DNA of 64,000 nucleotides from Tubulanus polymorphus (lineage: Eukaryota > Animalia > Nemertea), in the NCBI RefSeq assembly GCF_964204645.1, contig NC_134028.1, positions 9,920,001 to 9,984,000 of the forward strand, read 5' to 3'. Of the stretch, positions 9,597-49,733 are shown piece by piece. The notes below the pieces were generated by a model. The model was not told where the DNA came from. It did no database searches and saw nothing but the letters and a program-made list of their open reading frames with translations. A program made the translations under genes and the position numbers. Numbering within the stretch: the first letter of the stretch is position 1; the number at the start of each line of letters is the position of its first letter.

Positions 9597-10185
9597 ATGT
9601 CTTAGAAATCGAAGAAGAATAATATTGATATTGAAAAAATATTAGATGATTTAGGATTAACCGAAGCCAAAATTGAAAATAATAGTAATAATGTAGCAAC
9701 TGATTGTATTCAAAATAATAATATTGATATTGAATACTATTCAACATGTAAAAATCAACTCTAGTAACTAATTGCTAGTGGTAAATGCAAAGAATTTATT
9801 GGTACAATAATAACTTTTCAAGAATTAGATAATATGAACAAAGAAAAAGTAATATAATATTTCAAAATATATGAAGAAGCTAGATTAGCCCGAATAAACG
9901 ATTCTATTAGTGGTGGACTAGTAAAATGTTATTCTAATGTATGCAACCGGATAATACCAATTGATGATGAAAATAAATTATATACTGATTTAAAAAATGA
10001 TTACTTAGTTATGACAGAATTACAAAAATGGGTTGGATACGCTTCATTTCAATTAGGATCGATTATGACATTAATTCCTACTGGTGTAATAACATTTTCT
10101 AATATCAAACCTATAGACTAAAAAGATAAAAAATCAGATACTATCGAAACAGATATCGAAACAGAACAAAAATTAAGTAAAATAA
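9597..10185 (+). pseudogene. Polinton hypothetical protein (homologue of the 58732 minus ORF)
   Basis: IEKILDDLGLTEAK, ASGKCKEF and LKNDYLVMTEL shared; several stops. Confidence 0.75.
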
Positions 10186-10527
10186 ATGAGGGATGGTATT
10201 AAGAAAAAGCCTAGATCTGAAAAACAAATTGCGTGGTCAAAGCAATTAGGTAGAACTGCAGAATTAAAAGCTAAGAAAGAGAAATTAGCTGTTATAAATG
10301 AATCACAGACATTATCTGATATTAATTCAAATAATAATTCATCTAATGCTTCTAATACTGGAAGTAATTATTACTTATATATTACAATTGTATTTATCAC
10401 AGTAATTATATTCTCTGGTGTAATATATAAATTCAAATTTAATGATGATGATAAACCTATTAAACCAGAATATAAATCAAATGATAAAATCATTGAAAAT
10501 AAATCTAAATTATCATTAATGGATTAG
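10186..10527 (+). CDS. Polinton small single-pass membrane protein
   Basis: KKKPRSEKQIAWS motif and hydrophobic helix shared with 49260-49637 and 52123-52491. Confidence 0.7.
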   Translation: MRDGIKKKPRSEKQIAWSKQLGRTAELKAKKEKLAVINESQTLSDINSNNNSSNASNTGSNYYLYITIVFITVIIFSGVIYKFKFNDDDKPIKPEYKSNDKIIENKSKLSLMD

Positions 10528-10533
10528 AATAAG

Positions 10534-11613
10534 ATGAAAAAAGAACAATATTTAAGAGATTTATATTATAACCCAGAGAGTAAAGTATCATTTATTCTAG
10601 TGTTGCAGAATTATGGGATAAAATACAATTTGATAGTGAAAATATAAAATATAGTGAATTAAAATTACGGTTACAAAATCACCCAACATATCAAATCCAT
10701 AAGAAAATGGATAAAAATTATTTAACAAGAAAAGTTATGGTTTCATATATTGATCAACAATGGCAAGCAGATTTAATTGATATGAAAAACTTAGAAGAAC
10801 ACAATAAAGGATATTTTTTTTCGATATTAAATGTTATAGATATATTCAGTAGATACGCATGGTCAATTCCAATCAAAAATAAAACTGGTATAGAAGTAAG
10901 AAATGAGTTCAAATTAATATTTAAAGAAGCTATTCCAGATAAGATACAATTTGATGAATGTAAAGAATTTTATAATAAACATTAAAAAAATCATTATCTG
11001 ATAACGATGTAGAGTATTATTCAACACACTCAGATAAAAAGCATCTATCATAGAAAGATTTGATAAAATATTGAAAACTAGAATGAGGAAATATTTTACT
11101 GCTAATGCAACACATAAATATATCGATATATTACATGATTTAGTGAAAGGTTATTATAATTTTAAACATTCAAGTATTGGTATGAAACCTATACAAGCTA
11201 GAAAAAAAGATAATTCAGAAGTTGTTTGGAACACTTTATATGGTGCGTTTGTTACACATGATTTTGGAGAACCTAAATTTAAACCAGGACAACATGTTAG
11301 AATATCTAAATATCGAAAAAGATTTTATAAAGGTTATACTCCAAATTTTACTGAAGACATATTTAAAATTAAAAAAATAATATTAACTAAACCTTTTATG
11401 TATAAATTAGAAGATTTAAAATATGAAGAAATATTAGGTTATTTTTATGAACGAGAATTATCACTTGTACCAAATTCAGATGATATAGAATACAAAATAG
11501 AAAAGGTATTGAAAACAAAAACGTAACGTGGTAAGAAATAATATCTGGTGAAATATGAAAGATGATAAATTTAATGAATGGATTTTATCTAGTAAAATTA
11601 AGAAAATAAATGA
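10534..11613 (+). pseudogene. Polinton rve integrase with C-terminal chromodomain
   Basis: QQWQADLIDM, IDIFSRYAW, QFDECKEF, YKIEKVLKT; frameshifts and stops. Confidence 0.92.
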
Positions 11614-12552
11614 ATAAAGATTTATTTATATTTGAACCCGCATAATATGTTAATAACTGGGGTAACCAATTGTGGTAAAACACATTTTATATTAGATTTG
11701 TTAGAAACTGTTTATATAAATCATTTTGATAATGCAATATTATTCTGCCCTACTTATGAAATGAATGAAACGTATAATAGAGATATAGTTTTTTAAGATA
11801 AAAGATTTATTATATCAAATCCTACTTCTGTAAAGAGTATTTTAGATAATTGTATAAAAATTGCATTAGATATTCATAATGGAACAAATGAAAGGCTGAA
11901 TCCAAGAACATGTCTATCGCACTTTTGAGCCCAAACGTCTACTTTTACTTAGTAGCCACTTGAGAACAATAAGCAATAAACGATATCATCTCTACTGCTA
12001 GTATGCACTATCGAAACCAGATGTTTCAAAATGGTCACTTTTCAATAGAAGACTCTTCGAAACAGCCACTATAGAAAACCAAAAGTGACTGTTTTGAAAT
12101 GTATACTACTGGAAAAGTAGCTGATATCGTTAATTGCTTATTGTTCTCAAGTGGCTACTAAGTGAAAGTAGACGTTTGGGCTCAAAAGTGCGATAGACAT
12201 GTTCTTGGATTCAGCCTTTCAAATACATTATTCATCATAGATGATTGTGCAAATTTACATGATTCAAAATACGAGAATTATGTTATTGAGCTTTTTCTGG
12301 TAGACATTTTGGGATAACAACATGGGTTTTAAATCAAAAATATAATTCAATTGCTAAAGATTTTACGGAGAATATAAGATTTTTAGTATTATTTTATAAC
12401 AAAGATTATAGCAATCTATGCAACAATCTCTGGAAGAAAATCAAATTATAATGACTTACATGATGAATATATGAATAAATTAAAAAATAATAAACGTTCC
12501 AAATTATTACTGAGCCTACAATTTCCCTATGAATACAAATTTATAAAATAAA
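11610..12552 (+). pseudogene. Polinton packaging ATPase (A32/FtsK-like), interrupted by a MITE
   Basis: Walker A GVTNCGKT, Walker B FIIDDC, SGRH motif. Confidence 0.88.
11890..12220. mobile_element. MITE with ~98-bp TIRs and AAAT TSD
   Basis: GAAAGGCTGAATCC...GGATTCAGCCTTTC flanked by AAAT; removal restores ATPase codons GTNTLF. A 4-bp AWWT TSD would fit Sola (inference). Confidence 0.9.
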
Positions 12553-12908
12553 ATTTTAAAAAATATAATATAATTTAGAATTGTATGGATGGTACGAGTG
12601 TACGAATGGTACGAGTGTAATAATATTTAAAAAACAGTACGAGTTTGATTTTAAGTTATTTTATACTATATTTAAATATTATTTTAATATTGCTAAAAAT
12701 GTTATCACCGAACTAATTGTAACTGAACAACTAATAATAAAATAATATATAATTTTACATTTTAAATACTTTTTCTTTTTAATTTTTAAATCATTTTCAA
12801 ATTCTAATATTTGTTTTTCTAAATATATTTTTTATTTAGTTTTATTTATATCATGAGGAATAATCAACACAATCAATTTGATTTTCCATTTATATAATGA
12901 AAAAATTA

Positions 12909-13331
12909 CTAATTAGTAAATTCATATGCTACAAATATAACAATAACTGTTCCACCTAAAATCCATATTATTTCATATTGCTGTTGTTCTTTACTTGGGG
13001 TATAATAATCTGAAAATTTAGGTTTATATAGATATAATTTTTCACGATTTGTTACTGCGTTATATAAACTCATAGCATCATCAACTGACTTAAAATCTCT
13101 ATGTGAAATATTTTGGTTATATAATTCTTTATTAATATAATCCATATAATTTTGTCTTTTTTCTCTATATTCTTCTGCAGCTTTATTATATTTCTCTAAC
13201 GCTAAGTTATATCTTTTTTGTTCTGATAATGAACCATTTTTATCAATATGTTTAAATAAATAACCGCCACCTGTAAATGCTAAAGCGTTAACAATTGCCG
13301 ATCCTATAATAGTTATAATTGCAAATGCCAT
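12909..13331 (-). CDS. Conserved Polinton protein (hydrophobic N-terminus, coiled coil, C-terminal TM)
   Basis: Intact 140 aa; pseudogenised homologue at 25586-26008. Confidence 0.75.
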   Translation of the reverse strand: MAFAIITIIGSAIVNALAFTGGGYLFKHIDKNGSLSEQKRYNLALEKYNKAAEEYREKRQNYMDYINKELYNQNISHRDFKSVDDAMSLYNAVTNREKLYLYKPKFSDYYTPSKEQQQYEIIWILGGTVIVIFVAYEFTN

Positions 13332-13347
13332 TTATTTAGTAAAAAAA

Positions 13348-13954
13348 TTACGCGTCAACAGGAGGAATATATTTTTGTTTTTCCAAATAATCAATATTTA
13401 AATTAGATAAATTTACTGCTAATGTTAATTTCAAAATATCATTGATATCAAATCTATCAACACTAATATTTCCCATTTTAAATACTTTTTTTAATAACAT
13501 TGTATAACCAACAGTTCCAACTGATATAACCAACAGTTCCAACTGATAGTAATGCTCCATTATATGAACCAGTTATTATCCATTTCTGATCCGCCATTTA
13601 TAAAGAACAAAAATTACAATCCTCAAAATATTTAGTTATCTTAGTTACAATTATTTCAACATTTATGATATTGTTAGTTTCATTTTCATATATTTCAGTT
13701 TTTATTTTTTTAATATCATCGATAATAAAATCTTCATTGAATTCATAAAATCTCAAAGAATTTCTAATGAAATCAGTAATTTTTTCTACCTTATAAATTT
13801 CTTTATTTATCGTTGTTTCATAATCAAATGTTGTTTCATTAAAAAATGCAATATTTTTGATATGAGTTATTACATCATTAATATCAAATTTCATTTCTTT
13901 CTCACGTTTAAAATCAAATCAAAAACATATACTCGGCCCTGCTGTGATATTCAT
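13348..13954 (-). pseudogene. Two small Polinton ORFs (homologues of 25340-25561 and 24978-25336)
   Basis: Near-identical peptides (DRFDINDILKLTLAV; INDVITHIKNIAF). Confidence 0.7.
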
Positions 13955-13972
13955 ACCTATATATCAAAAAAA

Positions 13973-14772
13973 TTACTGTTTACATCTTATAACTCATTCA
14001 TAAATTACAGGAAAATTATTTAAATTAATTAAATATCCATTATGATTTCTTTTTTCTAATTTGAAATTATCAAATTGTGGAATACAAGGTTTAAAATCAC
14101 ATTCAGCTAAATTATAATTTATTTGCGTTCTAAATTGTTTAACATTTTTCAATGGTAGAATATTTAATATACTGGAATTACAAATTGTACCTTAAGTTGC
14201 TTCATATGTTTTTACGGGGTATATTAAATTACAATATATATTAATATGTGTAAAAGGTGTAAAAATTATATTTGGTATATTATTACATATTATATACTTA
14301 TATATTTGCTATATTATTACTATATTATTAGTATAGTTTATTTGGTGTAATTCCTAAAATTTTAGGTTATGGTTTCCTTACTATAAATTTATGTTGTTCT
14401 TCATTAGCTAACTTTATTCTTAATTCATTATCAATCACTTTTTACAAATTTAATTCCAAATCCAGCAGCTGCGCCCATTTTTGTCTTAGCTTTTCTATTA
14501 ATTTCATGTGCTAAAGTCTCTCAATTATATAATCCTGGTTTTATAAATAGATGATACCATTTATTCAATTTTCTTACATGAATCATAAAAGCATTATGAT
14601 CAAAAGTTTTATCTGTTACATTATAAAAACAATTACATAAACTTATATTTACTAATTTTAAATCTACACAATTTTTAAATTCTCTATCTAATTGCACTAG
14701 TTAATAATGAGATTAATAATTTGTAAGTTTTCTAGAATCAACATATATTCTATATTCTTTTAATTCAATCAT
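13973..14772 (-). pseudogene. Minor capsid protein (penton), copy A
   Basis: Reverse-complement homologue of 24202-24961. Confidence 0.7.
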
Positions 14773-14788
14773 TTATTTTACATATTTT

Positions 14789-15142
14789 TTATTCAAAATC
14801 TATGTCATGACATCCTTTTTCATTCTTACCTTTATATATGAAATAGAAATCACCAGAATACAATTCTTCAATATCTTCACTAGATAATCTGTGAAATCTG
14901 TCTGGTAAATATGTTCTGAATTTATATCTTTTTCCTTTTAATCCTTCATGTTCTAAGTGAATAACTTATTTATTACCATATCTATTAGTAATTGTTTCAA
15001 TATTTGTAATTAAATATATCTTATGTAATGTTAATTCTGTTAACTTTTTGAATTTATAATCTACAGATTTGACATTTGTAGTAACTTTAATTCTATCTAA
15101 GAATGATTTGTTGTTCTCACTGTGTACTTGTCTACTCTCCAT
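14789..15142 (-). pseudogene. Subterminal ~115-aa ORF, homologue of 30081-30407
   Basis: FKKLTEL..YGNK..YLPDRF..IYKGKNEKGCHDIDF; one internal stop. Confidence 0.65.
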
Positions 15143-15241
15143 TTCAATAAAAAATTTTTTATTAAAATTGATTTCATTTATGTATTATTCACGAATATGA
15201 TTTTCATTTATGTATGTTATTCATATTTATGAAATTATTAG

Positions 15242-15393
15242 AGTAATTGTATAAATGGGGGTTCAGATTAAAGGTTGAAAGGTTGAGTGAGTAAAAAATA
15301 AAAATAAATTCGAGCGTGCGAGAATTTAATTTTTATTTTTTCATGAGCTCGACCTTTCGACCTTTGATCTGAACCCCCATTAATACAATTACT
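15242..15393. repeat. 152-bp fold-back terminus of copy A
   Basis: AGTAATTGTATAAATGGGGGTTCAGAT...ATCTGAACCCCCATTAATACAATTACT; homologous to the copy B TIR. Confidence 0.8.
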
Positions 15394-16340
15394 GATGACT
15401 GCTATTTGTGCACGGTGGATCACGTTCCCGGATGACGCAGAAGCCGTCGTAGAGTGCGGAGTTTGTTATGAGTCCGGACAGCAGTGCCAATGCCAATACC
15501 GGAATTTAACGTGTGATAGCTGCTACGCACCAATATAGCAATCGGGAGGGAGAGTGCACACAGTATCATGCTGTGCCCCTACTGTCGGAATACCATTTAT
15601 TGGGCGCGGATGTTCGAAGAAAAACCCACTAAATTCATTTACATTATAGTTTTATTATAGAAGCTTAAAATATTTCACGATATATTTTTTTACAAATAAT
15701 CATTATCATTAGTTTTATTTGACGATAGTTTCGTAGTATCGCGTTCATTGTTACCGTGCCAATTCAATAAAAAGGATAAAACGTATAAGATCGAGTCGAT
15801 AATTGAAACTCGAGGTAAAGGCGCTCGAAAACAATACTTGGTAAAGTGGTATAACTATCCCGATAAATTCAATTCTTGGGTGAACGCTCGAGATATCAAG
15901 AAATCACCATGAGTCAGGATTATTAGGTGTATCTCAAAAGTGATGCTAGCATAGACATTCATCCCGATAATACGCAACATAGTTTTAAAGTCCGTTTACG
16001 AACACCGATTTCACTTCAAGGCAAATGGGTTTGTGCTTTACATCAAATACACTTTTTGGCTGATATCAATAACGTGAACAATGGAAGATTTCAATGTACG
16101 TCGTCTGAGCACGGAACTCATCATCTCGATATACCCACGGGGCGCTATTTGACAATTACTCAATTAATTGTCGCTTACAAGCAGAGTTAAACAAATGGTA
16201 CGGTGATAAGAGGGTTCTTGCATTCGATGTACTAAGTCATAAAATTAGTATCCGATTTTATGGCAACTGTTCGATAACCTTTACGAACGATTTTGCGTGG
16301 ATCTTGGGTTTTAGAGAAAATATACCGATTAACGAAAGTA
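15394..16340 (+). pseudogene. Fragment of a second, more GC-rich Polinton family: RING-like remnant, integrase chromodomain tail, penton N-terminus
   Basis: CGVCYES..CDSC..PYCR; YKIESIIETRGKGARKQYLVKWYNYPDKFNSWV; LKSDASIDIHPDNTQHSFKVRLRTPISLQGKWVCAL. Confidence 0.7.
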
Positions 16341-17757: not shown

Positions 17758-17837
17758 AGTAATTAGAAGATGTGGGTTTCAGATCAGAGGTCGGAGGTCA
17801 AACACTCATCACCACAAGAAATTTTTTTTCCTTATAA

Positions 17838-20800
17838 ATGGGGGAGAATGAACACCAACCAGAAAACAATAATGTCAATAAAAATCAATATTATTGTCAA
17901 TATTGTAAAAAATACATCGATAAATACCAAAAATCACGACATGAAAAATCTGCAAATCATATAAAAAATGTAATAGATTTTGAAACTCCAGAAAATTCCA
18001 ATGAAAGAAAAGAACGATTAGAAAATATGAATGTGGATGAAATAAAATGTGAAGTTTGTAATGAATTTATAGTAAAAAGGAATTATAATAGACATCTCGA
18101 ATCACAAAAACATTATAAAAATTTAAATAAAAATGTTTTAGGATTAGAATATTTTGATAATAAACCTCAACAAGTAAAAGAATCAACTTCAAAAACTAAA
18201 TCCATTTCAAATAAACCTTACATGGAAAATGTTAGAAATTATATTGATTCACTAGAAATAAAAGATACAATTGAAATTTTAGAAACATTACATAGTAAAA
18301 TTGGTCCTGCAGCTATTATATTTAGATTTTTTAAAGGTACAACAATAGAAGATTATAGTAAATTTAATGAAATAATAGAAAAAATACTAGATTTGATAAC
18401 AGATGTTGAATATCCAAAAATTAGTATCTCTGGGAAAGTAAGTTTTATAAAGTCAGGAGAAAAAATGGATTATAATATTCAAACACTCTCTGAAGAAATA
18501 ATTTCAAAAACACAAATAAAAGAGAAGTTAGAAAAAATATTTAATGAATTTAAACGTCATATTGAAGAAAGATATTTTGAGGGTTCTGGCTTAACATTGA
18601 ATGAAATTATATATTTAGATTTAAATGTTTATAATACAAAAAGAAATAAAACATCAAAAAGTAATAAAATGTTTAAAAATGATTCAAACTTTACAACAGA
18701 AAAGGATATTAAAGCATCATCTTATATTAAATTACCATTTACAACAAAAGCAGTAATAAATATTCAAAATGAAGATAATAAATGTTTTCTATGGTCAATT
18801 ATTAGTTGCTTACATCCAACACAGGAAAATGTTTGTAGAATAACAGATTATCGGAAATATGAAACATTATATAAAATTGATCAATATCCAGTAACTATAA
18901 AAATGATTCCTAAAATAGAAAAAGTTAATAATTTAAAAATAAATGTATTTGAATTAATGCAATTACCAAAGACAAAAGGTGAAAATATTAAAGATTATAC
19001 ATTGGAATCTTTATATTTAACAGAATATTATGATGATGAAAATGCTATAGATTTGTTATATTACAAAAAAGATGAAAATGAACATTATATGTGGTTAAAA
19101 CAAATTGATTTATTCTTTAGAACAGAAAGTGATCATCATCGTAAAATTTATCTATGTAGAAAATGTTTATCTAAATTTATGACTGAGAATACATTATAAA
19201 AACATAAAGAATTATGTGATAATAAAGATTTTTTTAAATTAATAATGCCAACAGAAAAAGATTATAAATTGAAATTTACTAATCATAAATTTAAAAATAT
19301 TATTCCATTTGTAATTTATGGGGATTTTGAATCGTTGAATAAAGAATTAACTGATCAAGATAGAAAAGAAATATATAACAAAAAGCAATTATTAAAATCA
19401 ATGGATAAAGGAAATGAATTAAATGAAGACACAATACAAGACCCACCAATTATAAATACAATTAAAAAAGTTCATCAAAGAGCTGCTGCTTATGGAATTT
19501 ATATAAAATCAAATTATCCCGAATTATATGAAAGTCAATATATTTCTTTTAGAGGTGAAAATGTAGTTAATGATTTTTGTGATAAAATGATTGAATTAGA
19601 AAGTGATTTTACAAAATTATTAAACAAAAATAAAAGAATAGTTATGACAAAAGAAGATGAAATTGATTTTAATTATGCAACTCATTGTTGTTACTGTGAA
19701 AAACGTTTTTATTCATTTGATAAAAGAGTTAGAGATCATGATCATTTGAATTCAAAATATCGTGGAGCTGCTCATGAAGATTGCAATTTACAAGCTAAAA
19801 AAGTAAATTTCGTACCAATATTATTTCATAATTCATCAGGATATGATACCCATCTATTTATAAAACAATTATCGGGAAAATTGGGTGCAATTAATCAAGA
19901 AATAGAAGAATATAATACTATGAATGGTGTAAATGTAAGAAAATATGATTTTAAACTATTAGCTAAAACATCTGAAAATTATATTTCATTTCAATTTGGT
20001 TGCATTAGATTTTTAGATTCTTATAGATTTCTAGCAAGTTCATTAGATAATTTATCAAAAAGTTTAGTTGATAATGATTTTGTTATAACTCGATATTATT
20101 ATCCAAATGAACAAGATTTTAAATTATTGAGATATAAAGGCGCAATTCCTTATTCATTTTATAAAACACATAATGATTTTAATGTAACTGAATTATTAAA
20201 AGATCAATTTTATGATCAATTAAAAGAGGAGTATGTGAAAGATGAAGTGTTTAATAGAACATTAAATATTTGGAACCATTTTAAGATGAAAAATCATGGT
20301 GAATTAGTTGATTTATATTTAAAATCAGATGTTATGATATTGGCTGACATATTTGAAAAATTTAGAGAAGTTAATTTGAATCATTTTAATGTTGATCCTT
20401 GTTATTGTTATTCAAGTCCTGGTTTAACCTGGCAATGTGGTTTAAAATATACAAATGTAGAATTAGATTTATTAAAAGAACCAGATATGGTTTTATTATT
20501 TGAAAAATCAATTAGAGGTGGAATTAGTGGTGTTATGGGAGATAGGTATTTTAAAGCAAATGATGAATATAAATTATTATATATTGACGCCAATAATTTA
20601 TATGGTTGGGCAATGATGCAACCTCAACCACATAAAAATTTTATATTAACAGAAGTTGAAAATGGTGATAAAACTGATTGGGAAAGCGCAATTGCGAGTT
20701 TAAAAGATGAAGCACCAATTGGTTATTTCTTTGTAGTTGATTTAGAATATCCTGAAAATATAAAGTTTAAAACAAGAAACTTACCTTATTGCCCAGAACA

Positions 20801-22835
20801 TTTAACTGTAGATGATAGTTATTTAAGTGAATACCAGAAGAAAATAAAACCGAAAGATCATGTTTTTACAGAAAAATTAATACTTACTCAAAATAATAAA
20901 TACAATTATATTGTTCATTATAGAATGTTAAAATTTTATCTGAAACAAGGAATGAAATTAAAGAAAGTACATAGATATATTGAATTTAATCAATCGAGGT
21001 GGTTAGAAAAATATATAGATTTCAATACTCAACAGAGAACTATATCAAAAACAGATTTTGAAAAAGATTTTTTCAAATTGATGAACAATAGTTTTTATGG
21101 AAAAACATGTGAAAATATTAGAAATAGAAATGATATTGAATTAGTAAATAATTCTGAAAGATTAAGACATTTACAATCAAGTCCTAGACATTTAGGAAAT
21201 AAAAGGTTTGAAGATTATTTAACCGCGGTAAAATTAAAAAGAACGTCAATGAAATTTAATAAACCTATATTCATTGGTTCAACTGTTTTAGAAATAACAA
21301 AATTATTAATGTATGATTTTTATTATAATGTTTTACAACCACTTTTTGGGGAAAAGCATATTGAAATATTATATTTTGATTCTGTAACAGCTGATACCCC
21401 AATATTATTAAAATACAATAACCAAATATTAATAAGAAGAATTTCAGAAATAATTCCAAAACAAAATGAACTTTATATTTCATATGGTGAAAAAGAATTA
21501 ATACAAATAAATGGTTTAATAGATGTTTGGACAAGAAATGGATGGAAAAAATTAAAGAATATTATTAGACATAAAACAAATAAGAAAATCTATAGAGTTA
21601 GAACTAAATTAGGGTTCGTAGATGTTACAGAAGATCATAGTTTAATTAAACGAAATGGTGATGAAATAAAACCAACTGATATAAAAATTGGAGATGAATT
21701 ATTACATAAAAGATTTTTCCCAAGAATGAATCATATATCATTTGATGAAATAATTGATAATATTTATAATATAGAACCCGAAACATTAGAAGAAAAAGAA
21801 TATTTTATCAAAGGATTTTTCATGCAATCAAGACTTAAAATTATTAGAAAGAATTAAGAAATTCTGTGAAGAAGTTTATCCAAATAAAACATTTAGAATC
21901 ATGGATGTTATGAAATCAACAGCAGTTTATAGAATACTTGTAAATAATCCTAAAGATTTTGCTATAAAATATAATGATGAATTCTATATTCATGCAATAG
22001 TGAAAAGTAATACTTCAACTAAAGAAAAAATAGTACCAGATTATGTATTAAATACAAAAAATAATTTAAGAAAGTGGTTCTTCATTGGATTCTATGCCGC
22101 AGATGGTTCAAAAAGTTTCCAAAACCGCAAAACCATATCCTTTGCTCAAAAAGGAAAAGTTGCTATATCAGGATTGAATATATTATGTAGTTTATTAGGA
22201 TTTAATATGAATATAGAATTAATTAAATCTAAACAATTGTTTTAATTTAAGGCATGTAGAAAAAGAATTAACAGAAGTTAAAGATTTATTTGAAATATAT
22301 AACCCAACTGACTATGTTTATGATTTATCAACAGATGATGGAACATTCAATTCTGGGTTCCCATTAATCCAAAAAAAATACCGATAGTTACATACTAAAA
22401 ATCAAGACAAATGATATAACAAAAGACTTAAAAACATTAAAACATCATTTTGATTTTAGTAACTACCCTAAAAATCATGAATTGTTTAGCAATGATAATA
22501 AAAAGATTCCTGGTAAATTTAAAGATGAATTAGGAGGTGATGAAATGATTGAATTTGTTGGGATAAGAAGTAAAATGTATAGTTACAGAACAAAGGATCA
22601 TGAAGCTAAAAAGTTAAAAGGAATAACAAAACATGTGGTTGATAAACATATAGAATTTCAAGATTATATAAAGTGTTTATATAAATCAATTGTAATGAAA
22701 CACAAAATGAATTGTTTAAGATCAGAAGATCACGAGATGTACATTAATGAAGTTGAAAAAACTAGTTTGAATCCATTTGATGATAAAAGGCATATTTTAG
22801 ATGATGGTATAAAAACATTACCTTATGGCTATTAA
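17838..22835 (+). pseudogene. polB: Protein-primed family B DNA polymerase (pPolB) with intein
   Basis: N-terminal Zn fingers, EGSG, NKCFLWSI, Exo I YGDFES, RDHDH..GAAH..CN, FHNSSGYD, YIDANNLYGWAM, KLMNNSFYGK, YFD/TDS, KLKG; in-frame TAA 19197-19199; frameshifts within the intein. Confidence 0.95.
21381..22379 (+). mobile_element. Intein with degenerate LAGLIDADG homing endonuclease in pPolB motif C
   Basis: YFD|SVTADTPILL (block A), VDVTEDHSL (block B), FIKGFF and FFIGFYAADGS, YVYDLST..GTF..KN|TDS (blocks F/G, needs removal of one A from the A8 run 22371-22378). Confidence 0.93.
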
Positions 22836-23447
22836 AACATAAAATCAATATCATCAAACTCGAAATCACTATTGTCTTCTTCATTTTCATTTAATTGTTT
22901 AGGTTCTTCTTCCATTCCATTTTTTTCATTTAAATAAAGTTCTATCTTGTTCCACATTTCATCTCGCTCTCTTTGTTTCTTTTTGTTTGTTAATTCATCA
23001 AATGGAATTATAATATCTAGGTTTAAATAATTTACAATCTTATTTAAAAATAATTCATAATTTATTGAATCTGTTATTCTATTTTCCAAATGATATATTA
23101 ATATTTGTTTGAATATTTTTTTTTATATTTTCTATATCTTCTTCTGTTAATTTAGGTTTTTCATAATAATCGTTAAATAATAAATATAAATACATTTTCT
23201 TTTCTTTTGTGTTTAATGTTGACGGAATAATTGTATTTATAATATCTTTTTTAGTTATTTCACCATTTTCATTTTCTATTATTTTCATTTTTTCAAGCCA
23301 TTGCATATATTCTAATGTATGATCTTCTATAGAAAATATTTTAAAAATTTCATCAAGATAATTTAATTTTGGTTCTATGATAAAATCTCTAGTTTTTTCT
23401 TCGCCCCATAAATTCCTTTGCCATCCACAATCAACACAAAATAACAC
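22832..23447 (-). CDS. Two small hypothetical Polinton ORFs (85 and 122 aa; possibly fragments)
   Basis: ORF track; viral-like codon composition; acidic tail. Confidence 0.45.
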
Positions 23448-23461
23448 AGTACCTTCTTGTC

Positions 23462-24133
23462 TTAAGGTCGTATAATAACATTGTGGGCATTTTGTTTATA
23501 AATTATTGGTAATAGATCTTCATTAAGCTCTTGGTATTTTCTTACGTTTTCTTTATGTTTTATTGTTCTTTTATGTAGATTTGAATTACTTGTTGTAATA
23601 ATCAATTTACAATATTTACAATAATATGTTTTTCTTGTTAATTCATTATATTGTTTTTCTAACTTTTCAACTGTTTCTTCATTATCTGGTAACGTTTTCT
23701 TATATTTTATTTTTTCTAATAAATTATTTTCTCTTGCATTGAATTCAGTTTCAAATTTATTAGAAATTTTATCTATATGTGCTTTACGAAATTGATGATT
23801 CTCCCAATCTTCTATATTTTCAGGGCTATATTTTATTCGACAAGGCTCACAGAAATGATCTTTTATATTATCCTTATCATAGAATAAGAAAGGTCTTTTC
23901 CAAATAATTTCAGGTTCAACTTCAACAGAATTACTATCAACATTAGCCATTGCGCCATTAATTCTACACTTCTCTAAATGTTTTTTAACATAATTTCTTG
24001 AGAATAATTTATTACATTTTGGACAGTTTAGTTTAGGGGGTTTATAATTTTCTTCATGTTTTTTCATATGTCGAGCCATATTACTTTTTCTTAGAAATTC
24101 ACCACAAATTTCACATGCTATCTTCGCATCCAT
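23462..24133 (-). CDS. Multi zinc-finger (C2H2-like) protein
   Basis: CEIC..HMKKH, CPKC..HLEKC, CEPC..H..H, CKYC..HKRTIKH; TAAATG start. Confidence 0.75.
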   Translation of the reverse strand: MDAKIACEICGEFLRKSNMARHMKKHEENYKPPKLNCPKCNKLFSRNYVKKHLEKCRINGAMANVDSNSVEVEPEIIWKRPFLFYDKDNIKDHFCEPCRIKYSPENIEDWENHQFRKAHIDKISNKFETEFNARENNLLEKIKYKKTLPDNEETVEKLEKQYNELTRKTYYCKYCKLIITTSNSNLHKRTIKHKENVRKYQELNEDLLPIIYKQNAHNVIIRP

Positions 24134-24201
24134 TTATTAAGGAAAAATTTTATTAAAATTAATTTTTAGTGATGAGCGGTAATTTTTTTATGTTATAAAT
24201 A

Positions 24202-24961
24202 ATGGTAGAATTAAAAGAATACAGAATATTTGTTGATTCTAGAAAACTTACAAATTATAAATCTCATAATTTATTAGTACAATTAGATAGAGAATTTAAG
24301 AATTGTGTAGATTTAAAATTATTAAATATAAGTTTATGTAATTCTTTTTACAATATATCGAATAAAACTATTGAACATAATACTTTTTTAATTCATATTA
24401 GAAATATAAATAAATGGTTTCATCTATTTCTAAGACCAGGATTATATAATTTAGAAACATTATCTCAAGAAATTAATCGTAGAGCACGGTTGAAAATTAG
24501 AAAAAGATGATAAATTTTTAATAAGATTTATAAAAAGTGATAGCTCAAATAGAATTAAATTAAAGGTATTTGATGAAAGTCAACATGCATTTATGGTAAA
24601 AAAACCTATAGCTAAATTGCTAGGAATTGAACCAGATGTTGTTACAGTAAACGTAGAAGGCATTTCAAATATAATACCTTTTACACATTTTTATATTTAT
24701 TGCAATTTAATCGATCCTACAAAAGCATTTGAAGCAACTAAAGATACAACATGTAATTCTAGTATATTAAATATTTTACCATTAAAAAATGTTAAACAAT
24801 TTGGAACGCAAATAAATTATAATTTAGCTGAATGTGATTTCAAACCTTGTATTCCTCAATTTAATAATTTTAAATTAGAAATAAGAAATCATAATGGATA
24901 CTTAATTGATTTGAATAACTTTCCTGTAATTTATGAATTAGTTATAAGATGTAAAGAGTAA
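24202..24961 (+). pseudogene. Minor capsid protein (penton), copy B
   Basis: NSFYNIS, PGLYNLETL, LLG, FYIYCNLID, IDLNN pattern typical of Polinton pentons; break near 24510. Confidence 0.72.
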
Positions 24962-24977
24962 TTTTTCACCTATATAA

Positions 24978-26008
24978 ATGAATATAACTGTTGGACCGAG
25001 TATATGTTTTGGATTTGATTTTAAACGTGAGAAAGAAATGAAATTTAACATTAATGATGTAATTACACATATCAAAAATATTGCATTTTCTAATGAAACA
25101 ACATTTGAGTATGAAACAACAATTGATAAAGAAACTTTAAATGTAGAAAAGATTACTAATTTAATTAGAGAATCTTTAAGATTTTATGAATTAGAAGATT
25201 TGAAGATTTTATAATCGATGATATTAAAAAAATTATAATTGAAATATATACAAATGAAACTAGTAATAAAATAAATGTTGAATTAATAATCACTAAGATA
25301 ACTAAATATTTTGAAGATAGTAATTTTTTTGATTAATAAATGAGTGATAATAAGTGGATAATAACTGGATTATATAATGGCGCATTACTATCAGTTGGAA
25401 CGGTTGGTTATTCAATGGTATTAAAAAAAGTATTCAAAATGGGAAGTGTTAATGTTGATAGATTTGATATCAATGATATTTTAAAGTTAACATTAGCAGT
25501 TACTTTATCTAATTTAACAATTGATTATTTGGAAAAACAAAAATATATTCCTCCCATATAAATGCATAATTTTTTTGTTAAATAAATGGCTTCTGCAATT
25601 ATAACTATTATAGGATCGGCAATTGTTAACGCTTTAGCATTTACTGGTGGTGGTTATTTATTTAAACATATTGATAAAAATAGTTCATTAGGAGAACAAA
25701 GAAGACATAACTTAGCGTTAGAGAAATACAATAAAGCTGCAGAAGAATATAGAGAAAAGAGATAAAACTATATGGATTACATCAATAAAGAATTATATGA
25801 TCAGAAGATTTCACACAGAGATTTTAATCAGTTGATGATGCAATGAGTTTATATAACGCAGTAACAAATAAAGACAAATTACATCTATACAAACCTAAAT
25901 TATCAGATTATTATACCCCAAGTAAAGAACAACAGAAATATGAAATAATTTGGATTTTAGGTGGAACAGTTATTGTTATATTTGTTGCTTAAATAATTTA
26001 CTAATTAG
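24978..26008 (+). pseudogene. Three small conserved Polinton ORFs (24978, 25340, 25586)
   Basis: Syntenic with 12909-13954 of copy A; 25340-25561 intact, the others disrupted. Confidence 0.7.
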
Positions 26009-26027
26009 TAATTTTTATTCTAAATAA

Positions 26028-26489
26028 ATGGAAGATAAAGTTGATAGTATTGATATTATTCCTCATGATATAAATAAAACTAAATTAAAAATATATTTAG
26101 AAAAACAAATATTAGAATTTGAAAGTGACTTAAAGATAAAAAAGAAAAAATATTTAAAAAGTAAAATTATATATTATTTGATTATAAGTGGTTCGGTTAC
26201 AATTAGTTCTGTAATAACATTTCTAGCAATATTCAGCCCATTAACACCTTTAGCTATATCAATTGGTGTATTAGGATTAAGTTCAAGTGTTTTAACCGGT
26301 ATAAGTTCAAAATTAAATATAAAAAGTAATAAAGAAAAAATTAAAACTAATATAAAAGAAATTAATAAATTAAAGAACACACTAGATTATATAATAAGTT
26401 TAAATGGTCATATAACAGTTGAAGAACAAGATAAATTATTAAAAGAATTAATAAATTATCAATTTTTTAATTATATAAATGGTAGATAG
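26028..26489 (+). CDS. Polinton protein with two-TM hairpin between coiled coils
   Basis: 153 aa; TAAATG start; truncated homologue ~12760-12890. Confidence 0.7.
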   Translation: MEDKVDSIDIIPHDINKTKLKIYLEKQILEFESDLKIKKKKYLKSKIIYYLIISGSVTISSVITFLAIFSPLTPLAISIGVLGLSSSVLTGISSKLNIKSNKEKIKTNIKEINKLKNTLDYIISLNGHITVEEQDKLLKELINYQFFNYINGR

Positions 26490-27867
26490 TTTTCCAAAAG
26501 CTTTCCATAATAATAAATTAATTAAATATAATATTCCAGCAATAGATTTTAATAAAGATATTACATATAGAAATGAAGTTTTAGATTCATTAACTAATTT
26601 ATATATTTATGTTACTGAAACTAATAATTTTAGTGCAAAGATGGAAAATATATTTCATGTATATTTAATTAATTTTAAAAAATTGAAAGATGAAAAACAA
26701 TGGTTATTAAAATCTAATATGAAGTATTGGCAGAATCAATTAAATTTTGCTGTTTATTGTGCAACAACAGGATGTGGAATTAGTTGGAATGATCATTTGT
26801 ATAATTCTAAATATAAATTAATTCAAAGTTTATTTAGATTTCATACATACTTTCAAATCAGAATATTATTAAATGAATTAGAGTGCGCTTTACCAGGATC
26901 AAGATATTTTAAAGAATTAGATAATAATATCAATTTATCTAAGTTTTATAAAATTTGCAATGAATTTAATATAGATATAAATAATTCTGATTTTAGAACA
27001 AAAATTGGAACAATAAGATCACTTCCTTGCCCTAAAAAGATTGCAGAATATTGTGCACTTCCCATACCATCTAATAGTTTTTATAATATCTATAATAATA
27101 AATTAGGTTATGGTAAAATAGAAACAAAGGATTTAGAAACATTAAATTTCAATAAATTACCGAAATTTTATGATAATTTAAAACAAGAAAACAATAATGG
27201 TTGGGTTTATTTTATTTTAGAAAATAGTGAAGGTTTTACTAAATCAGGTATAGAAAGAATAAATCAATCTATTAGAACTTATTTGATATGTATTCTAGGA
27301 TCACAAGTTGAAACAAGATCACCGATAATTGGAAATTTGAATACATCATTTGATACACAAAAACAGTTTAAAGTTTTATTTGAAGATTCAATTCATAATG
27401 ATAAAAATAGATCGATTCCAGAAAACATTATAAGATATCAAAATTATTTAGATAAATCTCATGTAAGACTTAATTATTGTATAGGCCCTAATCTATTAAT
27501 TATTTCTAATGATTTAGTATTAAAGATGGGAAATATAATTGGTTATAATAATCTAATTAAAACTGCAACAATAAATAATTCATTTGGATTGAATGATATA
27601 AATAAAAAGGTTATTACTGCTCCAAAATTAATGGAAGGTGAAAAAAATAAAAAACACATTCAATCAACTGAAACTAAAACTAAGAATATTAAATTAAATA
27701 ATGATTCTAAAATAAAAGATTACAATACATCAGAAAATAATAGAACTGATAAAATTCAACATGATATAATTAAACTAAATGATGATATTAAATCCCATGA
27801 AAATACTAAATTAGCTATAACTTGTATAGGAATTGTAATCGGAGGAATATTATATTTTAAATTTTAA
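26479..27867 (+). CDS. Conserved Polinton protein of unknown function (462 aa, C-terminal TM)
   Basis: Intact ORF with YWQNQLNFAVYCATTGCGIS; close homologue at 63509->64000. Confidence 0.8.
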   Translation: MVDSFPKAFHNNKLIKYNIPAIDFNKDITYRNEVLDSLTNLYIYVTETNNFSAKMENIFHVYLINFKKLKDEKQWLLKSNMKYWQNQLNFAVYCATTGCGISWNDHLYNSKYKLIQSLFRFHTYFQIRILLNELECALPGSRYFKELDNNINLSKFYKICNEFNIDINNSDFRTKIGTIRSLPCPKKIAEYCALPIPSNSFYNIYNNKLGYGKIETKDLETLNFNKLPKFYDNLKQENNNGWVYFILENSEGFTKSGIERINQSIRTYLICILGSQVETRSPIIGNLNTSFDTQKQFKVLFEDSIHNDKNRSIPENIIRYQNYLDKSHVRLNYCIGPNLLIISNDLVLKMGNIIGYNNLIKTATINNSFGLNDINKKVITAPKLMEGEKNKKHIQSTETKTKNIKLNNDSKIKDYNTSENNRTDKIQHDIIKLNDDIKSHENTKLAITCIGIVIGGILYFKF

Positions 27868-27883
27868 TTTTTTTATTATGTAA

Positions 27884-29098
27884 ATGGATGTAGAAGGTGG
27901 AGAAGATTATGAAATGGGAGAAATGGGAAATAATAATGAAGGATATATTGATGATGATTATAATGATGCAGAAACTAATATTGATAATGATGATGAATCA
28001 GCATATAATTCTAATTTAACTACACCTCAATATATTGAGAAAACACGTTCAAAGATAAGTATTGAAAATGAAGTACCAGAAATAACAGAAAAAGAATACA
28101 ATTATAATGAAATTATTCATGAATTTAAACCAATATTAAAAAGATCTGGTTTCAATATAACAAATAAAGGCATGAATTATTTAGTAAAAGATTTAAAATA
28201 TTTAAATGGTGATTATTATTGGAAATTGAAAGGCGACTATTATTTTAAGATTTCAAATCTTAAAAGTAGCGATAAAATAATATCACAATCAACTTTTAAT
28301 TTATTTAAACCAGATAGAATTAAGAAAATCATTAATGATGTTATAACTGATGTTACATAAGAAGAAAGAGATGATAATATAAAAGAATTTAAACAAAGAA
28401 ATGCTAATTTTTGAAGATAATTAATGTAAATTTAAGACAAAAAAAATTCCTAAAGAAGTTATTAATTCCAAAACTAGTAAACCTAATTCAAGCGAAGTTC
28501 AAACTGAAAAACTTTTACCAAATGGATTACTTGATGCAACAGATCAACAATTAGAAGATTTAAATATATTTTCTGATAAAGCAATTAGAGAAATTATTAG
28601 TATAAGACTTGCATCTGATAAAATTGCACATGATAAAAGTATAAGAGATTTTAAGATTAGAACTTTAGAAAAAGAATTAACTGATAAAAATAAAGAAATA
28701 GAACAATTAAAGACTGATTTAGATCATCAAGTAATTGATGAAATAGAATATAAACAAAAAGAATTACGTTTAGAAAAAGAAATAGATGAACACATTGAAT
28801 GGTCTCGACAATTAGGAATTAAATCACAAGAATATAAAAAAGCTGTAAAAGAAAAAATAAGTAATAAAAATGTTAATAAAAATGGTGAAAATATTGTTAT
28901 TTCTACTCCTTCTGATAGTAGAATATTTGATAAATATTTATATTTTACAGTTGGATTTGTAATTGTATTCATTTTGATTGGGTGTAATTGGTATAAGAAA
29001 TCAAATAAAATTCATGATATTAGTAATTCTGAAACAACTGCTATCAAAAATGAAAATACTTCTGAAATTCCAAAATTAATAATAAAAAAAATGGATTA
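27884..29098 (+). pseudogene. Deletion-fused remnant: N-part of the acidic/coiled-coil gene joined to the C-part of the small TM gene
   Basis: 27884-28785 matches 63486-62600; from ~28794 matches 52425-52123. Confidence 0.8.
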
Positions 29099-29459
29099 AT
29101 ATTTTAGAAAAAAAGCAAAAAAAATAATTGAATATCTCACTACTTTTGTCTATCTATGTGGAGCAATTAAATTGTCCAGATAAATCATTTCGGATTCTAG
29201 ATATTCATTATCTTTATTAATTTATTTTGTTTTTATTTGAATATTTGAATTTGAATTTGTTAATCAATTAACATAGTAATTGATTACTAATTTGATTAAA
29301 AATTATATCATAATTAAGTTAAAAATACATAATTCATTTATCAGTTTTCATTCTTACATTCTTTTCATTCGGAATAATTTATAATTTCAAATTTCACATA
29401 TTTTTTTAGCACCAACAACATTTACTTAGGTGTTTTAGCTAAGTATATAAGGCAATTCA

Positions 29460-29740
29460 TTCAACCACTGGAGTAGCTCTGGCCAGCAGAGGCATTTTGA
29501 AAATGCACCTTCGTCCACTCTCCGGGTTTCTCCTTCGGTTTCGAATTTCGAGATTGGTAGAAATTACATTAGGCGCCTTTAATATAATGTGATTTCTACC
29601 AATCATTGAAGGAGATCCCGGTTGACGTGGGTCGCCGGGGGTGTAAGTAGAAATGACTGGGGATAAGCGTCCCGTGGCGCCTTTCAATAATGGGATGCTT
29701 ATCCCCTGAAAACTCTGTAGGTCGAGGATAGGGCAATTTT
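29460..29740 (+). ncRNA. Candidate structured non-coding RNA (long rod plus two GGCGCC-loop hairpins)
   Basis: Hairpins 29552-29604 and 29659-29706; outer stem 29504-29645; covariation with copy C; G-U pairs on this strand only. Ends approximate. Confidence 0.6.
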
Positions 29741-30080
29741 GCTAAAACTTACTGTAAAAACATTGAAATATTCCTTTTAATCACGAGAGAATGATGACTA
29801 TCCTCCTGTCGTCACGGCCGAGCTAATTTAAATAAACCTCGTTTTCAGCAACTAATGAAAACGCAGTAGTTCAATACCGGCTAACTGGCTTGTGTGTGTT
29901 GTATGTACTGCGTGCTTATTATATAACAACAACGTTGTGCAACACCTGTTTAATTGATCAATATTCAAATGAAGCACTCTCTTATAATAATATGTAACAG
30001 ATGTACTGTATGATTGTAGTTGTTTATAAAACGACTAAGGTCATTTTGGATTCTAGATATTCATTATTTTTATTTTTTAT

Positions 30081-30407
30081 TCAATCAACAATTTCTAAAT
30101 CATGATGACCGTCTTCATTTTTCCCATGATATATTATTTTAAATCCTACTAAATCTTTAAATTCCTCCGTACTCAATGAAACCCATTTATCGGGTAAAAA
30201 CACTTTAAATTCTCGCGATGTACTAACATTACAGTAGCTTAAATTAGCTGATACTTTCTCTCCATATTTAGTTTTTATCTTTTCTAATTTCAATATTTTA
30301 TGTTCAATTTCTTTTGTAACATCAACTAACTTTTTTATTTCAAATTGTTTTTTTGCTGGTTTTATTCTGTTATTTATTGTTGCTAAGAATGCTTTTCTAT
30401 CTCCCAT
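30081..30407 (-). CDS. Subterminal 108-aa Polinton protein
   Basis: Start codon lies inside the TIR; copies at 47996 (frameshifted) and 50854. Confidence 0.75.
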   Translation of the reverse strand: MGDRKAFLATINNRIKPAKKQFEIKKLVDVTKEIEHKILKLEKIKTKYGEKVSANLSYCNVSTSREFKVFLPDKWVSLSTEEFKDLVGFKIIYHGKNEDGHHDLEIVD

Positions 30408-30493
30408 TTATAAGGAAAAAAAATTTCTTGTGGTGATGAGTGTTTGACCTCCGACCTCTGATCTGAAACCCACATCTTCTAATTACTTCGGTA

Positions 30494-47910: not shown

Positions 47911-49733
47911 AGTAATTGGAAGATGTGGGTTTCAGATCAGAGTACGAGAGTACGAGACACCACTCATCACCACAAGTAATTTTTTTTCCTAATAAATGGG
48001 AGATAGAAAAGCATTCTTAGCAAAAATAAATAACAGAACTAAACCAGCGAAAAAACAATTTGAAATAAAAAATTTAGTTGATGTTACAAAAGAAATTGAA
48101 CATAAAATATTGAAATTAAAATAAAAGATAAAAACTAAATATGGAGAGAAAGTATCAGCGAATTTAAGCTACTGTAATGTTAGTACATCGCGAGAATTTA
48201 AAGTATTTTTACCCGATAAATGGGTTTCATTGAGTACAGAGGAATTAGAAGATTTAGAAGGATTTAAAATAATCTATCATGGGAAAAATGAAGACGGTCA
48301 TCATGATTTAGAAATTGTTGATTAAATAAAAATAAACATAATGAATATCTAGAATCCAAAATGACCTTAGTCGTTTTACAAACAACTACAATCATACAGT
48401 CAAACATCTGTTACATGTTATTATAAGAGAGTGCTTCATTTGAATATTGATCGATCAAACAGGTGTTGCAATTCAACGTTGTTGTTATAGCAGTTATATA
48501 ATAAGCACGCAGTACATACAACACACACAGGACAGGACAGGAGGATACATTCTCTCTCGTGATTAAAAGGAATATTTCAATGTTTTTACGGTAAGTTTTA
48601 GCAAAACCACCCGACTTGACTCGCAGAGTTTTTAGTGGATAAGCATCCCGTTATTGAGAGGCGCCACGAGATACCTATCCCCAAGCATTTCTACTTACAC
48701 CCCTGTGACCCACGCCTCACCAATTCTCCTCCAATGGTTGACAGGAAACACATTATATTTAAGGCGCCTAATGCATTTCCTATCAACCCCTTACCCCCGA
48801 AAGGAGGATCGAAAGTCGAAACTGAAGGAGAACCACGGAGGGTGGACAAAGGTGCATTTTCGAGGCGGCACTCCAGTGGTCGAATGAATTGCCTTATATA
48901 CTTAGCTAAAACACCTAAGTAAATGTTGTTGGTGCTAAAAAAATATGTGAAATTTGAAATTATAAATTATTCCGAATGAAAAGAATGTAGGAATGAAAAC
49001 TGATCAATTACTATGTTAATTGATTAACAAATTCAAATTCAAATATTCATTTTAGCATCACACCCAGTGCTCCCATCTTTCAATTTAAGAAAAAACTAAT
49101 AATAAGAAACGACTGTAATACAATATTCAAGTAAAAACAAGATAAATTAATAAAAATAATGAATATCTAGAATCCGAAATGACTTATCTGGACAATTCAA
49201 TTGCTCCGCATAGATAGACAAAAGTAGTGAGATATTCAATTATTTTTTTGGTTTTTTTTCTAAAATATCAATCCATTTTTTTTTATTATCAATTTTGGAA
49301 TTTCAGAAGTATTTTCATTTTTGATAGCAGTTGTTTCAGAATTATTAATATTATGAATTTTATTTGATTTCTTATACCAATTACACCCAATCAAAATGAA
49401 TACAATTACAAATCCAACTGTAAAATATAGACATTTATCAAATATTCTATCATTAGAAGGAGTAGAAATAACAATATTTTCACTATTTTTATTAACATTT
49501 TTATTACTTATTTTTTCTTTTACAGCTTTTTTATATTCTTGTGATTTAATTCCTAATTGCCGAGACCATTCAATTTGTTTCTGTGATCTCGGTTTTTTCT
49601 TCACAGTTAATTCCTTCACTTCTTCCACCTTGTTCATTTATTATAGAAATATTTTTGCTTTCAATATTTGAAAATGTTATAACTCCAGTTGATAATTATG
49701 TCATAAATCCACCTAATTGAAATGATAAATATC
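47911..49733 (-). mobile_element. Duplicated terminal segment of Polinton copy C
   Basis: Starts AGTAATTGGAAGATGTGGGTTTCAGATC (TIR homologue); colinear with 30487-28794 reversed. Confidence 0.9.
48600..48890 (-). ncRNA. Candidate structured RNA, copy C duplicate 1
   Basis: Hairpins 48637-48680 and 48736-48788, fully paired with G-U pairs on the minus strand. Confidence 0.55.

Follow-up and report, generated by a model that had tools for sequence, protein, structure and literature searches.

Mavericks/Polintons and 'adintoviruses' (PMC8502044, PMC10748475, PMC11071308) carry a protein-primed DNA polymerase B (pPolB), an rve integrase with a chromodomain, an A32 ATPase, a double jelly-roll (DJR) MCP, TIRs, and a 6-bp TSD. 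They are usually taken as nuclear. The promoters of mavirus mimic the late promoters of CroV and are silent without CroV, as far as the available part of 10.1101/068312 describes them. In vaccinia virus, late promoters combine a TAAAT(G) that overlaps the start codon with a conserved T, flanked by further Ts, about ten bases upstream (accessible portions of PMC11980589 and PMC5294985). The Polintons described here share the gene set of the first group, and nearly all of their start codons lie in a motif of the vaccinia kind. We propose from the sequence that they are endogenous virophage-like hyperparasites of a cytoplasmic large DNA virus, whose RNA polymerase would use the motif as a late-type promoter during co-infection (probability about 0.65).

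The window (the whole stretch of 64,000 nucleotides that was analysed, from the nemertean Tubulanus polymorphus) contains four elements, A to D. The features of element B are:

17758..30487: element B, an integrated Polinton deletion derivative with 89-bp TIRs starting AGT and a 6-bp TSD on both sides
17819..17841, + strand: predicted promoter (T-run and TAAATG) in the left TIR, heading the polymerase gene
17838..22835, + strand: protein-primed DNA polymerase B gene with an HNH/EndoVII-type insert (PF03175, E=4e-18; homologue P0144 is a single ORF)
21381..22379, + strand: broken intein with a LAGLIDADG remnant, at the pol-c site (YFD-S...N-TDS)
22835..24133, − strand: zinc-finger/VLTF3-like late transcription factor gene, broken into three pieces (23465-24133, 23082-23495, 22835-23122), with a T-run and TAAATG start
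24134..24201: divergent intergenic region of 68 nt with two back-to-back predicted promoters, TAAATG on the − strand and TAAATA-ATG on the + strand
24202..28360, + strand: gene run conserved in the clade (24202, 24978, 25340, 25586, 26028, 26479, 27884), with the motif before each gene
30081..30407, − strand: conserved 108-aa ORF adjoining the right TIR, with the motif at 30407

The TIR ends (AG..CT), the 6-bp TSD, and the protein-primed PolB (PF03175) mark element B as a Polinton, although in this copy a stop codon around 19199 and breaks within the intein interrupt the polymerase gene. It has no MCP, integrase, or ATPase. The right TIR carries the same promoter sequence as the left and heads the ORF at 30407, which possibly encodes a single-strand DNA-binding protein. 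The genes of the elements are intronless and tightly packed, as the preliminary description stated; in several genes of the run at 24202..28360 the upstream stop lies 13–17 nt before TAAATG. The remaining elements are:

9597..15394: element A, a decayed related copy with integrase and A32 ATPase remnants (motifs at 9597, 10186, 11610, 12889, 13331, 13597, 14772)
47911..53325, + strand: element C, two tandem short derivatives with a B-type TIR (motifs at 47996, 50854, 52491)
58081..64000, − strand: element D, which runs off the window (motifs at 58732, 59646, 60775, 62053, 63486)
60806-62053, − strand: double jelly-roll MCP gene of element D, with one stop
59716-60775, − strand: rve integrase with chromodomain of element D
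59041-59646, − strand: A32 ATPase of element D, by ATPase family match

A block of element A is 80–87% identical to positions 24189-26233 of element B. An rve integrase with a chromodomain (PF00665, PF00385) is found in elements A and D and in L003, and a DJR MCP occurs with an A32-like ATPase (PF04665), both as expected of Polintons. The fold of an MCP relative, P0001, matches DJR capsids (E=3.5e-16). Its model is nearer to iridovirus/PBCV-1 capsids (E 1e-16) than to those of Sputnik/mavirus (E 1e-11), with which there is no sequence match; the MCP is not of the lavidavirus type (Maveriviricetes). Among the scanned ORFs, which come from elements and contigs that are all partial, there was no match to a Ulp1/adenain maturation protease, and none of the 114 ORFs or pieces was a poxvirus RNA polymerase subunit. 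Weak Pfam rows for Rap94 (E=0.019, L016) and Rpb1 (E=0.05–0.09) were rejected as noise. A relative, L001, encodes a deoxynucleoside kinase, whose homologues indicated no lineage. The host germ line holds 30 to over 100 copies, mostly 95–99% alike. This similarity, together with the retained TSD of element B, indicates recent spread.

All 23 ATGs listed in the preliminary description are preceded by TAA. A run of at least five Ts lies within −25..−4 in 16 cases, and the remaining seven are an A-rich variant, four of which retain the T at −10 from TAAAT. Starts were also defined without reference to the motif, by taking the earliest ATG that aligns close to the N-terminal end of a homologue taken from a different source. 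At such starts TAA precedes the ATG in 6/7 cases in element B, compared with 30/492 other ATGs (p=6e-7), and in 7/7 cases in C/D, compared with 26/504 (p=2.5e-9). The sum is 13/14 against 56/996 (p=3e-15), where orthologous starts are non-independent samples. The sole miss in B, at 24202, reads T-run, TAAATA, then ATG. The decayed element A gave 1/3 against 19/280 (p=0.2), its two misses being internal ATGs of broken genes. Outside the elements, TAA stands directly before the ATG in one of 11 window ORFs, and host-side TAAATG has a T at −9 in 11/32 cases. The motif has two parts, a T nine bases before TAAAT and an ATG fused to TAAAT. This upstream T, at −9 when counted from the T that opens TAAAT (or −10 counted from the first A), is present in 59/63 non-redundant starts, compared with 38% of 140 non-start TAAATG (p=4e-15). 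The genes show both the TAAAT(G/A) overlapping the start codon and the conserved T about 10 nt upstream among T residues (59/63), although the numbering convention of the published T may differ.

The preliminary description had named AT content and the host Kozak context as the way in which its reading could fail, and more broadly the motif might simply follow from AT content or from the way ORFs are called, or might serve translation as a Kozak or stop-restart signal. The elements are AT-rich (20–26% GC), and the AA at −15/−14 is often merely the TAA stop of the upstream gene. However, the background of the motif at other ATGs is 5–6%, its T at −9 is fixed, and it is present in relatives' contigs of 36–44% GC. 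The base at −3 before the ATG is a T, the disfavoured base in the eukaryotic Kozak context. The TAA is the stop of the upstream gene in only 1/73 cases; TAG precedes the ATG 0 times and TGA once, yet 27/92 real stops are TAG or TGA. The motif also heads the first genes in TIRs and divergent gene pairs. The explanation by AT content, Kozak context, or stop-restart is largely refuted, and we regard this whole group of accounts as very improbable. Head-to-head genes are 19, 24, 24, 28, 28, and 30 nt apart. AATAAA is not depleted in the coding strands (43 against 38.6 expected; 165 against 174.5 expected), and the long genes contain 4–12 copies each; the outgroup contigs have 6 against 11.8 expected. 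The reading of the motif as a promoter is well supported by its two-part vaccinia-like form, its GC-independent conservation across the clade, the T at −3, the lack of stop-start coupling, the ultra-short divergent gaps, the undepleted AATAAA, and the VLTF3-like gene. The T-run was also considered as a terminator. Runs of five or more Ts are depleted in coding strands (58 against 101), but so are runs of seven or more As (27 against 63), and so is the mirror pattern; TTTTTNT is absent at convergent gene ends, and this idea was not supported.

Among related Polintons on 15 metagenome contigs, including L005–L007 (36–44% GC), the motif precedes 49/58 ORFs; the figure for outgroup Polintons is 1/14 (five contigs). 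The motif-bearing MCPs form one clade in a quick tree (SH-aLRT 90). Near-intact relatives from several metagenomes keep the motif, and their MCPs are 52–83% identical to P0001. A scan of IMG/VR with the consensus motif gave 41 single matches, none recognised as Polinton or poxvirus, and an MCP scan of IMG/VR and GTDB gave no relatives.

The gene at 22835..24133 is a probable relative of the poxvirus late transcription factor VLTF3. Its last piece matches PF04947 with E=5.5e-4 to 1.1e-3 (20 bits for the window piece; cut-off 25). The only relative found for the protein, the intact 697-aa P0310, exceeds the Pfam cut-off over its C-terminal 79 aa (28 bits vs 25, E=2.2e-6); no match to PF04947 was reported for the whole 196-aa domain. 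In a fold search of BFVD, VLTF3 or the orthologous B385R of ASFV accounts for at least eight of the top 12 rows, with a best E of 0.026 from a low-confidence model (pLDDT 56). The best match, a weak one, is an entomopoxvirus VLTF-3, and the matches of highest probability, from the same low-confidence model, are poxviral VLTF-3 of matching short length. PDB sequence searches with the VLTF3 pieces and PDB Foldseek gave no matches, a scan of IMG/VR and GTDB with the pieces found no relatives, and the domain was undetected by a profile of 32 irido-like VLTF3 and by hhalign. Read depth over the gene equals that over the polymerase gene; the gene is thus common in the family. We had considered VLTF3 to be absent outside Nucleocytoviricota (PMC11253617, in part). 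This was dropped, since the accessible text of PMC8502044 and PMC11244446 reports such genes from adintovirus-like elements whose hosts are not animals.

The intein had been cited as independent support for a pox-like helper. The intein is real, but its relatives are not poxviral: they are delta-like, Megaviricetes-type NCLDV polymerases, in an intein tree without resolution. It points to NCLDVs in general and not to poxviruses. The intein host P0139 had no match in IMG/VR.

In the proposed cycle, transcription would start in the AAA of TAAAT, and a slipped poly(A) leader would replace the 5' UTR. The first round of expression would require the helper, because every gene, including those for the polymerase, the integrase, and the VLTF3-like factor, has only a late-type promoter. 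The element's own VLTF3-like protein would then direct the helper's late complex to element promoters or enhance its activity there, and the integrase would bring copies back into the germ line. A pox-like helper is our favoured candidate, at a little under even odds. More tentatively still, a widespread clade of animal Polintons may be endogenous virophages of poxvirus-like viruses, with late promoters used in the helper's cytoplasmic factory and, in some, a captured A2/VLTF-3 taking over the helper's late complex. Their germ-line copies would then be a record of invertebrate poxviruses as yet unfound, and might serve as an inducible defence against viruses.

The same helper-dependent cycle could instead run on an iridovirus-like (Pimascovirales) or other non-pox NCLDV, which we consider rather unlikely. 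Around iridovirus-like MCP genes TAA stands directly before the ATG in 140/694 ORFs (up to 8/18 at single loci), and in the MCP genes TAAA follows a T-rich/TCTT element at a distance of about 10 nt; the architecture is therefore not pox-only. The Megaviricetes-type relatives of the intein and the looser, irido-like TAAAA-ATG starts of the outgroup Polinton L019 fit such a helper as well. However, TAAA is fused to the ATG in only 2/59 irido-like MCP genes, and the T at −9 is present in 71/140 irido-like TAA-ATG starts vs 46/49 Polinton starts (p=9e-9). The failure of the irido-like VLTF3 profile and the poxviral top-probability fold matches also speak against it. In an autonomous nuclear element, the VLTF3-like factor, which we take to be TFIIB-like, would itself recognise the motif and recruit RNA polymerase II of the host, a mode of transcription that has been inferred for mriyaviruses. 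The accessible part of PMC11253617 describes mriyaviruses as having VLTF2/VLTF3 and no RNA polymerase, and as thought nuclear. The VLTF3-like gene in B, its frequency in the family, the non-animal adintovirus-like cases, and a germ-line copy number that requires nuclear access all favour this account. Yet the gene is itself under a late-type promoter, which leaves nothing to start the cycle; the AATAAA content and the T at −3 are at odds with nuclear expression, the 19–30-nt divergent gaps leave no room for a 5' UTR, and there was no VLTF2, TBP, or other factor among the scanned ORFs. We judge it unlikely, if slightly less so than the non-pox helper. Finally, the promoters might be a relic of a past helper-dependent phase, with present copies silent or passively spread. 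Each of the four elements in the window carries breaks or deletions, but the motif is kept in the near-intact relatives and the spread is recent, and this account is improbable.

The promoter signature bears on the expression of animal Polintons and on the question of whether some of them are real viruses or satellites. It makes these matters testable by a short reporter construct and names the likely helper class. Polinton clades could also be sorted by helper on the basis of their sequence, as the EMALE promoters allow in Cafeteria. If the helper-dependent reading is true, the provirophage defence model would extend from protists to animals. No published description of poxvirus-type late promoters in animal Polintons was found in the literature searched. 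The main texts of the Maverick/adintovirus papers contain no promoter analysis ('promoter' occurs 0 times in PMC8502044 and PMC10748475), and 'promoter' or 'motif' occurs 0 times in that of PMC11296320.

Vaccinia late promoters and the yeast virus-like elements pGKL (PMC11980589, PMC6211774, accessible text) also have a TAAAT(G)/TAAAN initiator at the start codon and a T-rich upstream element. However, both pGKL and poxviruses bring an RNA polymerase of their own, and none was found in the scanned Polinton ORFs. Mriyaviruses are likewise small viruses with a DJR capsid and a VLTF3 gene, and they too have no RNA polymerase, as far as the scanned Polinton ORFs allow the comparison; unlike the Polintons here, they lack PolB and integrase and have VLTF2 and an HUH nuclease (accessible part of PMC11253617). 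In contrast to Mavericks and 'adintoviruses', no cysteine protease was seen in these partial elements, and the consulted text reports VLTF3 only for non-animal relatives. The entomopoxvirus-associated PLVs (Barth et al. 2024, PMC11296320) are small DJR elements also proposed as poxvirus hyperparasites in animals. They were found in occlusion bodies and have no rve integrase, whereas the proposed link of the Polintons to poxviruses lies in the promoter and the VLTF3-like gene. The mavirus/EMALE provirophages of Cafeteria similarly integrate, have pPolB, an rve integrase, TIRs, and a TSD, and carry their giant helper's late promoter on their genes (available text of 10.1101/068312; EMALE promoters from 10.1101/2025.10.09.676808). 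The Polintons differ from them in their animal host, in a Polinton-type DJR capsid instead of a lavidavirus MCP, and in a pox-type TAAATG instead of the CroV TCTA; helper activation is known for mavirus and is here predicted from sequence. These Polintons may represent a variant of the virophage strategy in animals.

The window's four Polinton elements, all related, lie in a genome of animal type, which includes a BEL/Pao retrotransposon:

1-6465, minus strand: BEL/Pao LTR retrotransposon, LTRs near-identical
9597-15394: element A, a decayed copy
17758-30487: element B, bounded by terminal inverted repeats of 89 bp and flanked by a target-site duplication of 6 bp
24133-22835, minus strand: VLTF3-like gene of B, broken, in three pieces
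47911-53325: element C, a tandem short derivative
58081 to window end: element D, with rve integrase, A32 ATPase, and MCP

The protein-primed PolB of B (PF03175) is broken and holds an intein; the capsid, integrase, and ATPase genes of B are all missing. For the MCP of D, the predicted fold of an intact relative is a double jelly roll (pLDDT 85), and the best match to this model is an iridovirus capsid (E=3.5e-16; PDB 6ojn/8hif). In raw DNA reads with the same species label, coverage is ~100-690x for B and 640-920x for the MCP against 3-8x for the unique flank, so the family has tens to >100 copies. Palindromic or hairpin-like stretches occur at the ends of elements and in the gaps separating convergent genes (15241-15394, 58081-58304, 57230-57400; also in the metagenome loci L002, L003, and L010), and many reads switch strand near 58180-58300. 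A 24-nt unit repeated over ~1.5 kb (54475-55950, C/D region) adjoins a 726-bp inverted duplication (53761-54485 / 57407-58125). A GIY-YIG remnant is present at 53321-53791. Long low-GC ORF pieces at 32072-36700 (GATA finger, SWIM-like cysteines) resemble a decayed MULE-type or similar transposon.

All 23 ATG codons named in the preliminary description are indeed directly preceded by TAA (TAA-ATG). The T run it placed before them reaches at least five T at 16 of the 23, but not at the remaining 7. With starts picked by homology and the motif ignored, TAA-ATG was found at 13 of 14 starts in B and C/D compared with 56 of the 996 remaining ATGs (p=3e-15), and at one of three starts in decayed A. 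In a position profile that pools the window with 15 related contigs (63 non-redundant starts), a T lies nine bases before TAAAT at 59 starts compared with 38% of 140 non-start TAAATG, and a purine comes right after ATG at 62. The vaccinia late promoter, as described in excerpts of two papers (PMC11980589, PMC5294985), agrees with this motif.

A metagenome MCP scan gave 48 pattern matches, corresponding to 25 loci. TAA-ATG heads 49 of 58 ORFs (≥100 aa) in 15 of these, contigs of 36-44% GC included, and 1 of 14 ORF starts in five more distant loci; five fragmentary loci (L021-L025) have no scorable starts and lie outside the count. The motif-bearing MCPs fall in one clade of a quick tree (23 of 39 rows, SH-aLRT 90), within which start counts are non-independent because of common ancestry. 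The start motif is a character of this clade. In the outgroup loci L015 and L016, an ASFV-late-like TATA(A/G) precedes ATG by a few bases, and L019 has a T run with TAAAA-ATG starts; these differing contexts suggest that each sub-clade may be adapted to a helper of its own. In one Polinton relative, a gene for deoxynucleoside kinase starts at TAAATG (L001:10340-10981). Clade MCPs of one cluster (P0009) are labelled Bartonella proteins in several MAGs, probably through host-animal contamination.

The simple explanations of the motif fail. Eukaryotic Kozak context disfavors T at -3, which is the base found here. Stop-start coupling would make TAA the upstream gene's stop, which it is in only 1 of 73 cases; TAG and TGA almost never directly precede ATG, yet they make up 27 of 92 true stops. 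Divergent gene pairs 19-30 nt apart carry the motif on both strands in six contigs. We conclude that the motif is real and clade-wide.

The inference that weighs most for the mechanism is that every gene, the VLTF3-like gene among them, carries the late-type promoter alone, while scans of the ORFs of these partial elements and contigs turned up neither an RNA polymerase gene nor a poxvirus subunit of one; expression would then have to be started from outside. The genes would be transcribed in the cytoplasm by the late machinery of a helper NCLDV, a reading to which we assign a probability of roughly 0.65. The main rival, host Pol II recruited by a factor of the element, has a counterpart in a proposal for mriyaviruses (PMC11253617) and appears unlikely. 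AATAAA is not avoided in coding strands of the motif clade (window, 43 against 38.6 expected; relatives, 165 against 174.5), as expected for genes without nuclear processing; it is halved in the outgroup (6 against 11.8), and the BEL/Pao control (2 against 3.7) is too small a sample to decide.

A pox-like helper, as originally proposed, fits the strict fused motif, but the specificity is lower than claimed, as looser forms occur in other NCLDVs. Among ORF starts, TAA-ATG accounts for 107 of 922 across 79 NCLDV PolB loci and for 140 of 694 across 80 loci with an iridovirus-like MCP, where a single locus can reach 8 of 18. In such loci a T-rich element lies ~10 bases before TAAA, at variable distance to ATG. 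TAAA is fused to ATG in only 2 of 59 iridovirus-like MCP genes, and T at -9 accompanies 71 of 140 TAA-ATG starts there against 46 of 49 in Polintons. The strict fused TAAATG is the poxvirus form per published descriptions, against which the comparison was made. The MCP genes of the iridovirus-like loci (L151-L230) share a TATCTT(G)-like element ~8-10 nt before TAAA, itself 3-12 nt before ATG; this is a candidate late promoter of uncultured Pimascovirales, with spacing equal to that of the poxvirus late promoter.

The intein was held to fit independently. Its relatives, among 120 listed, are nearly all NCLDV-type RNA-primed PolBs (also one topoisomerase and one other Polinton), but they give no specific tie to pox; the pair examined more closely are similar to Pol delta, and the intein tree is without resolved branching. 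Another Polinton pPolB that carries an intein at the pol-c site (P0144) does not group with the window's intein in that tree.

VLTF3 is TFIIB-like. The last piece of the B gene matches Pfam Pox_VLTF3 below cut-off (E ~1e-3). Searched against 1.84 billion representatives, the middle piece gave two matches. Only one is genuine, the 697-aa zinc-finger protein P0310, which is intact and belongs to the L001 family of elements. The C-terminal 79 aa of its domain score above the Pfam cut-off (28 bits, E=2.2e-6); the family was absent from the results when all 196 aa of the domain were searched against Pfam. In BFVD, a weak domain model (pLDDT 56) has an entomopoxvirus VLTF-3 as its first match (E=0.026, prob 0.75); the first 12 also include cowpox A2, a second entomopox VLTF-3, ASFV B385R, and further VLTF3s. 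An iridovirus-type VLTF3 profile did not detect the Polinton domain, which is probably a short, pox-size VLTF3. Parts of two papers describe VLTF3 genes in adintovirus-like elements of non-animal hosts (PMC8502044, PMC11244446), so the gene by itself is not new. The helper reading divides into a pox-like virus, at a little under even odds overall, and, as an unlikely alternative, another NCLDV.

We found no report of poxvirus-type promoters in animal Polintons in full-text literature, subscription journals and supplements being outside this scope. A term search of the accessible part of PMC11296320 gave 0 occurrences of promoter, motif, and intein; the comparison literature, also in part, comprised PMC10748475, PMC11071308, PMC6211774, PMC7163114, PMC4542343, 10.1101/068312, 10.1101/2025.10.09.676808, and 10.1101/2024.03.23.586382. 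The most fitting interpretation of the start motif is an adaptation of virophage type in animal Polintons. If this reading is true, the strategy of virophages would be present here, in variant form, in animal Polintons.
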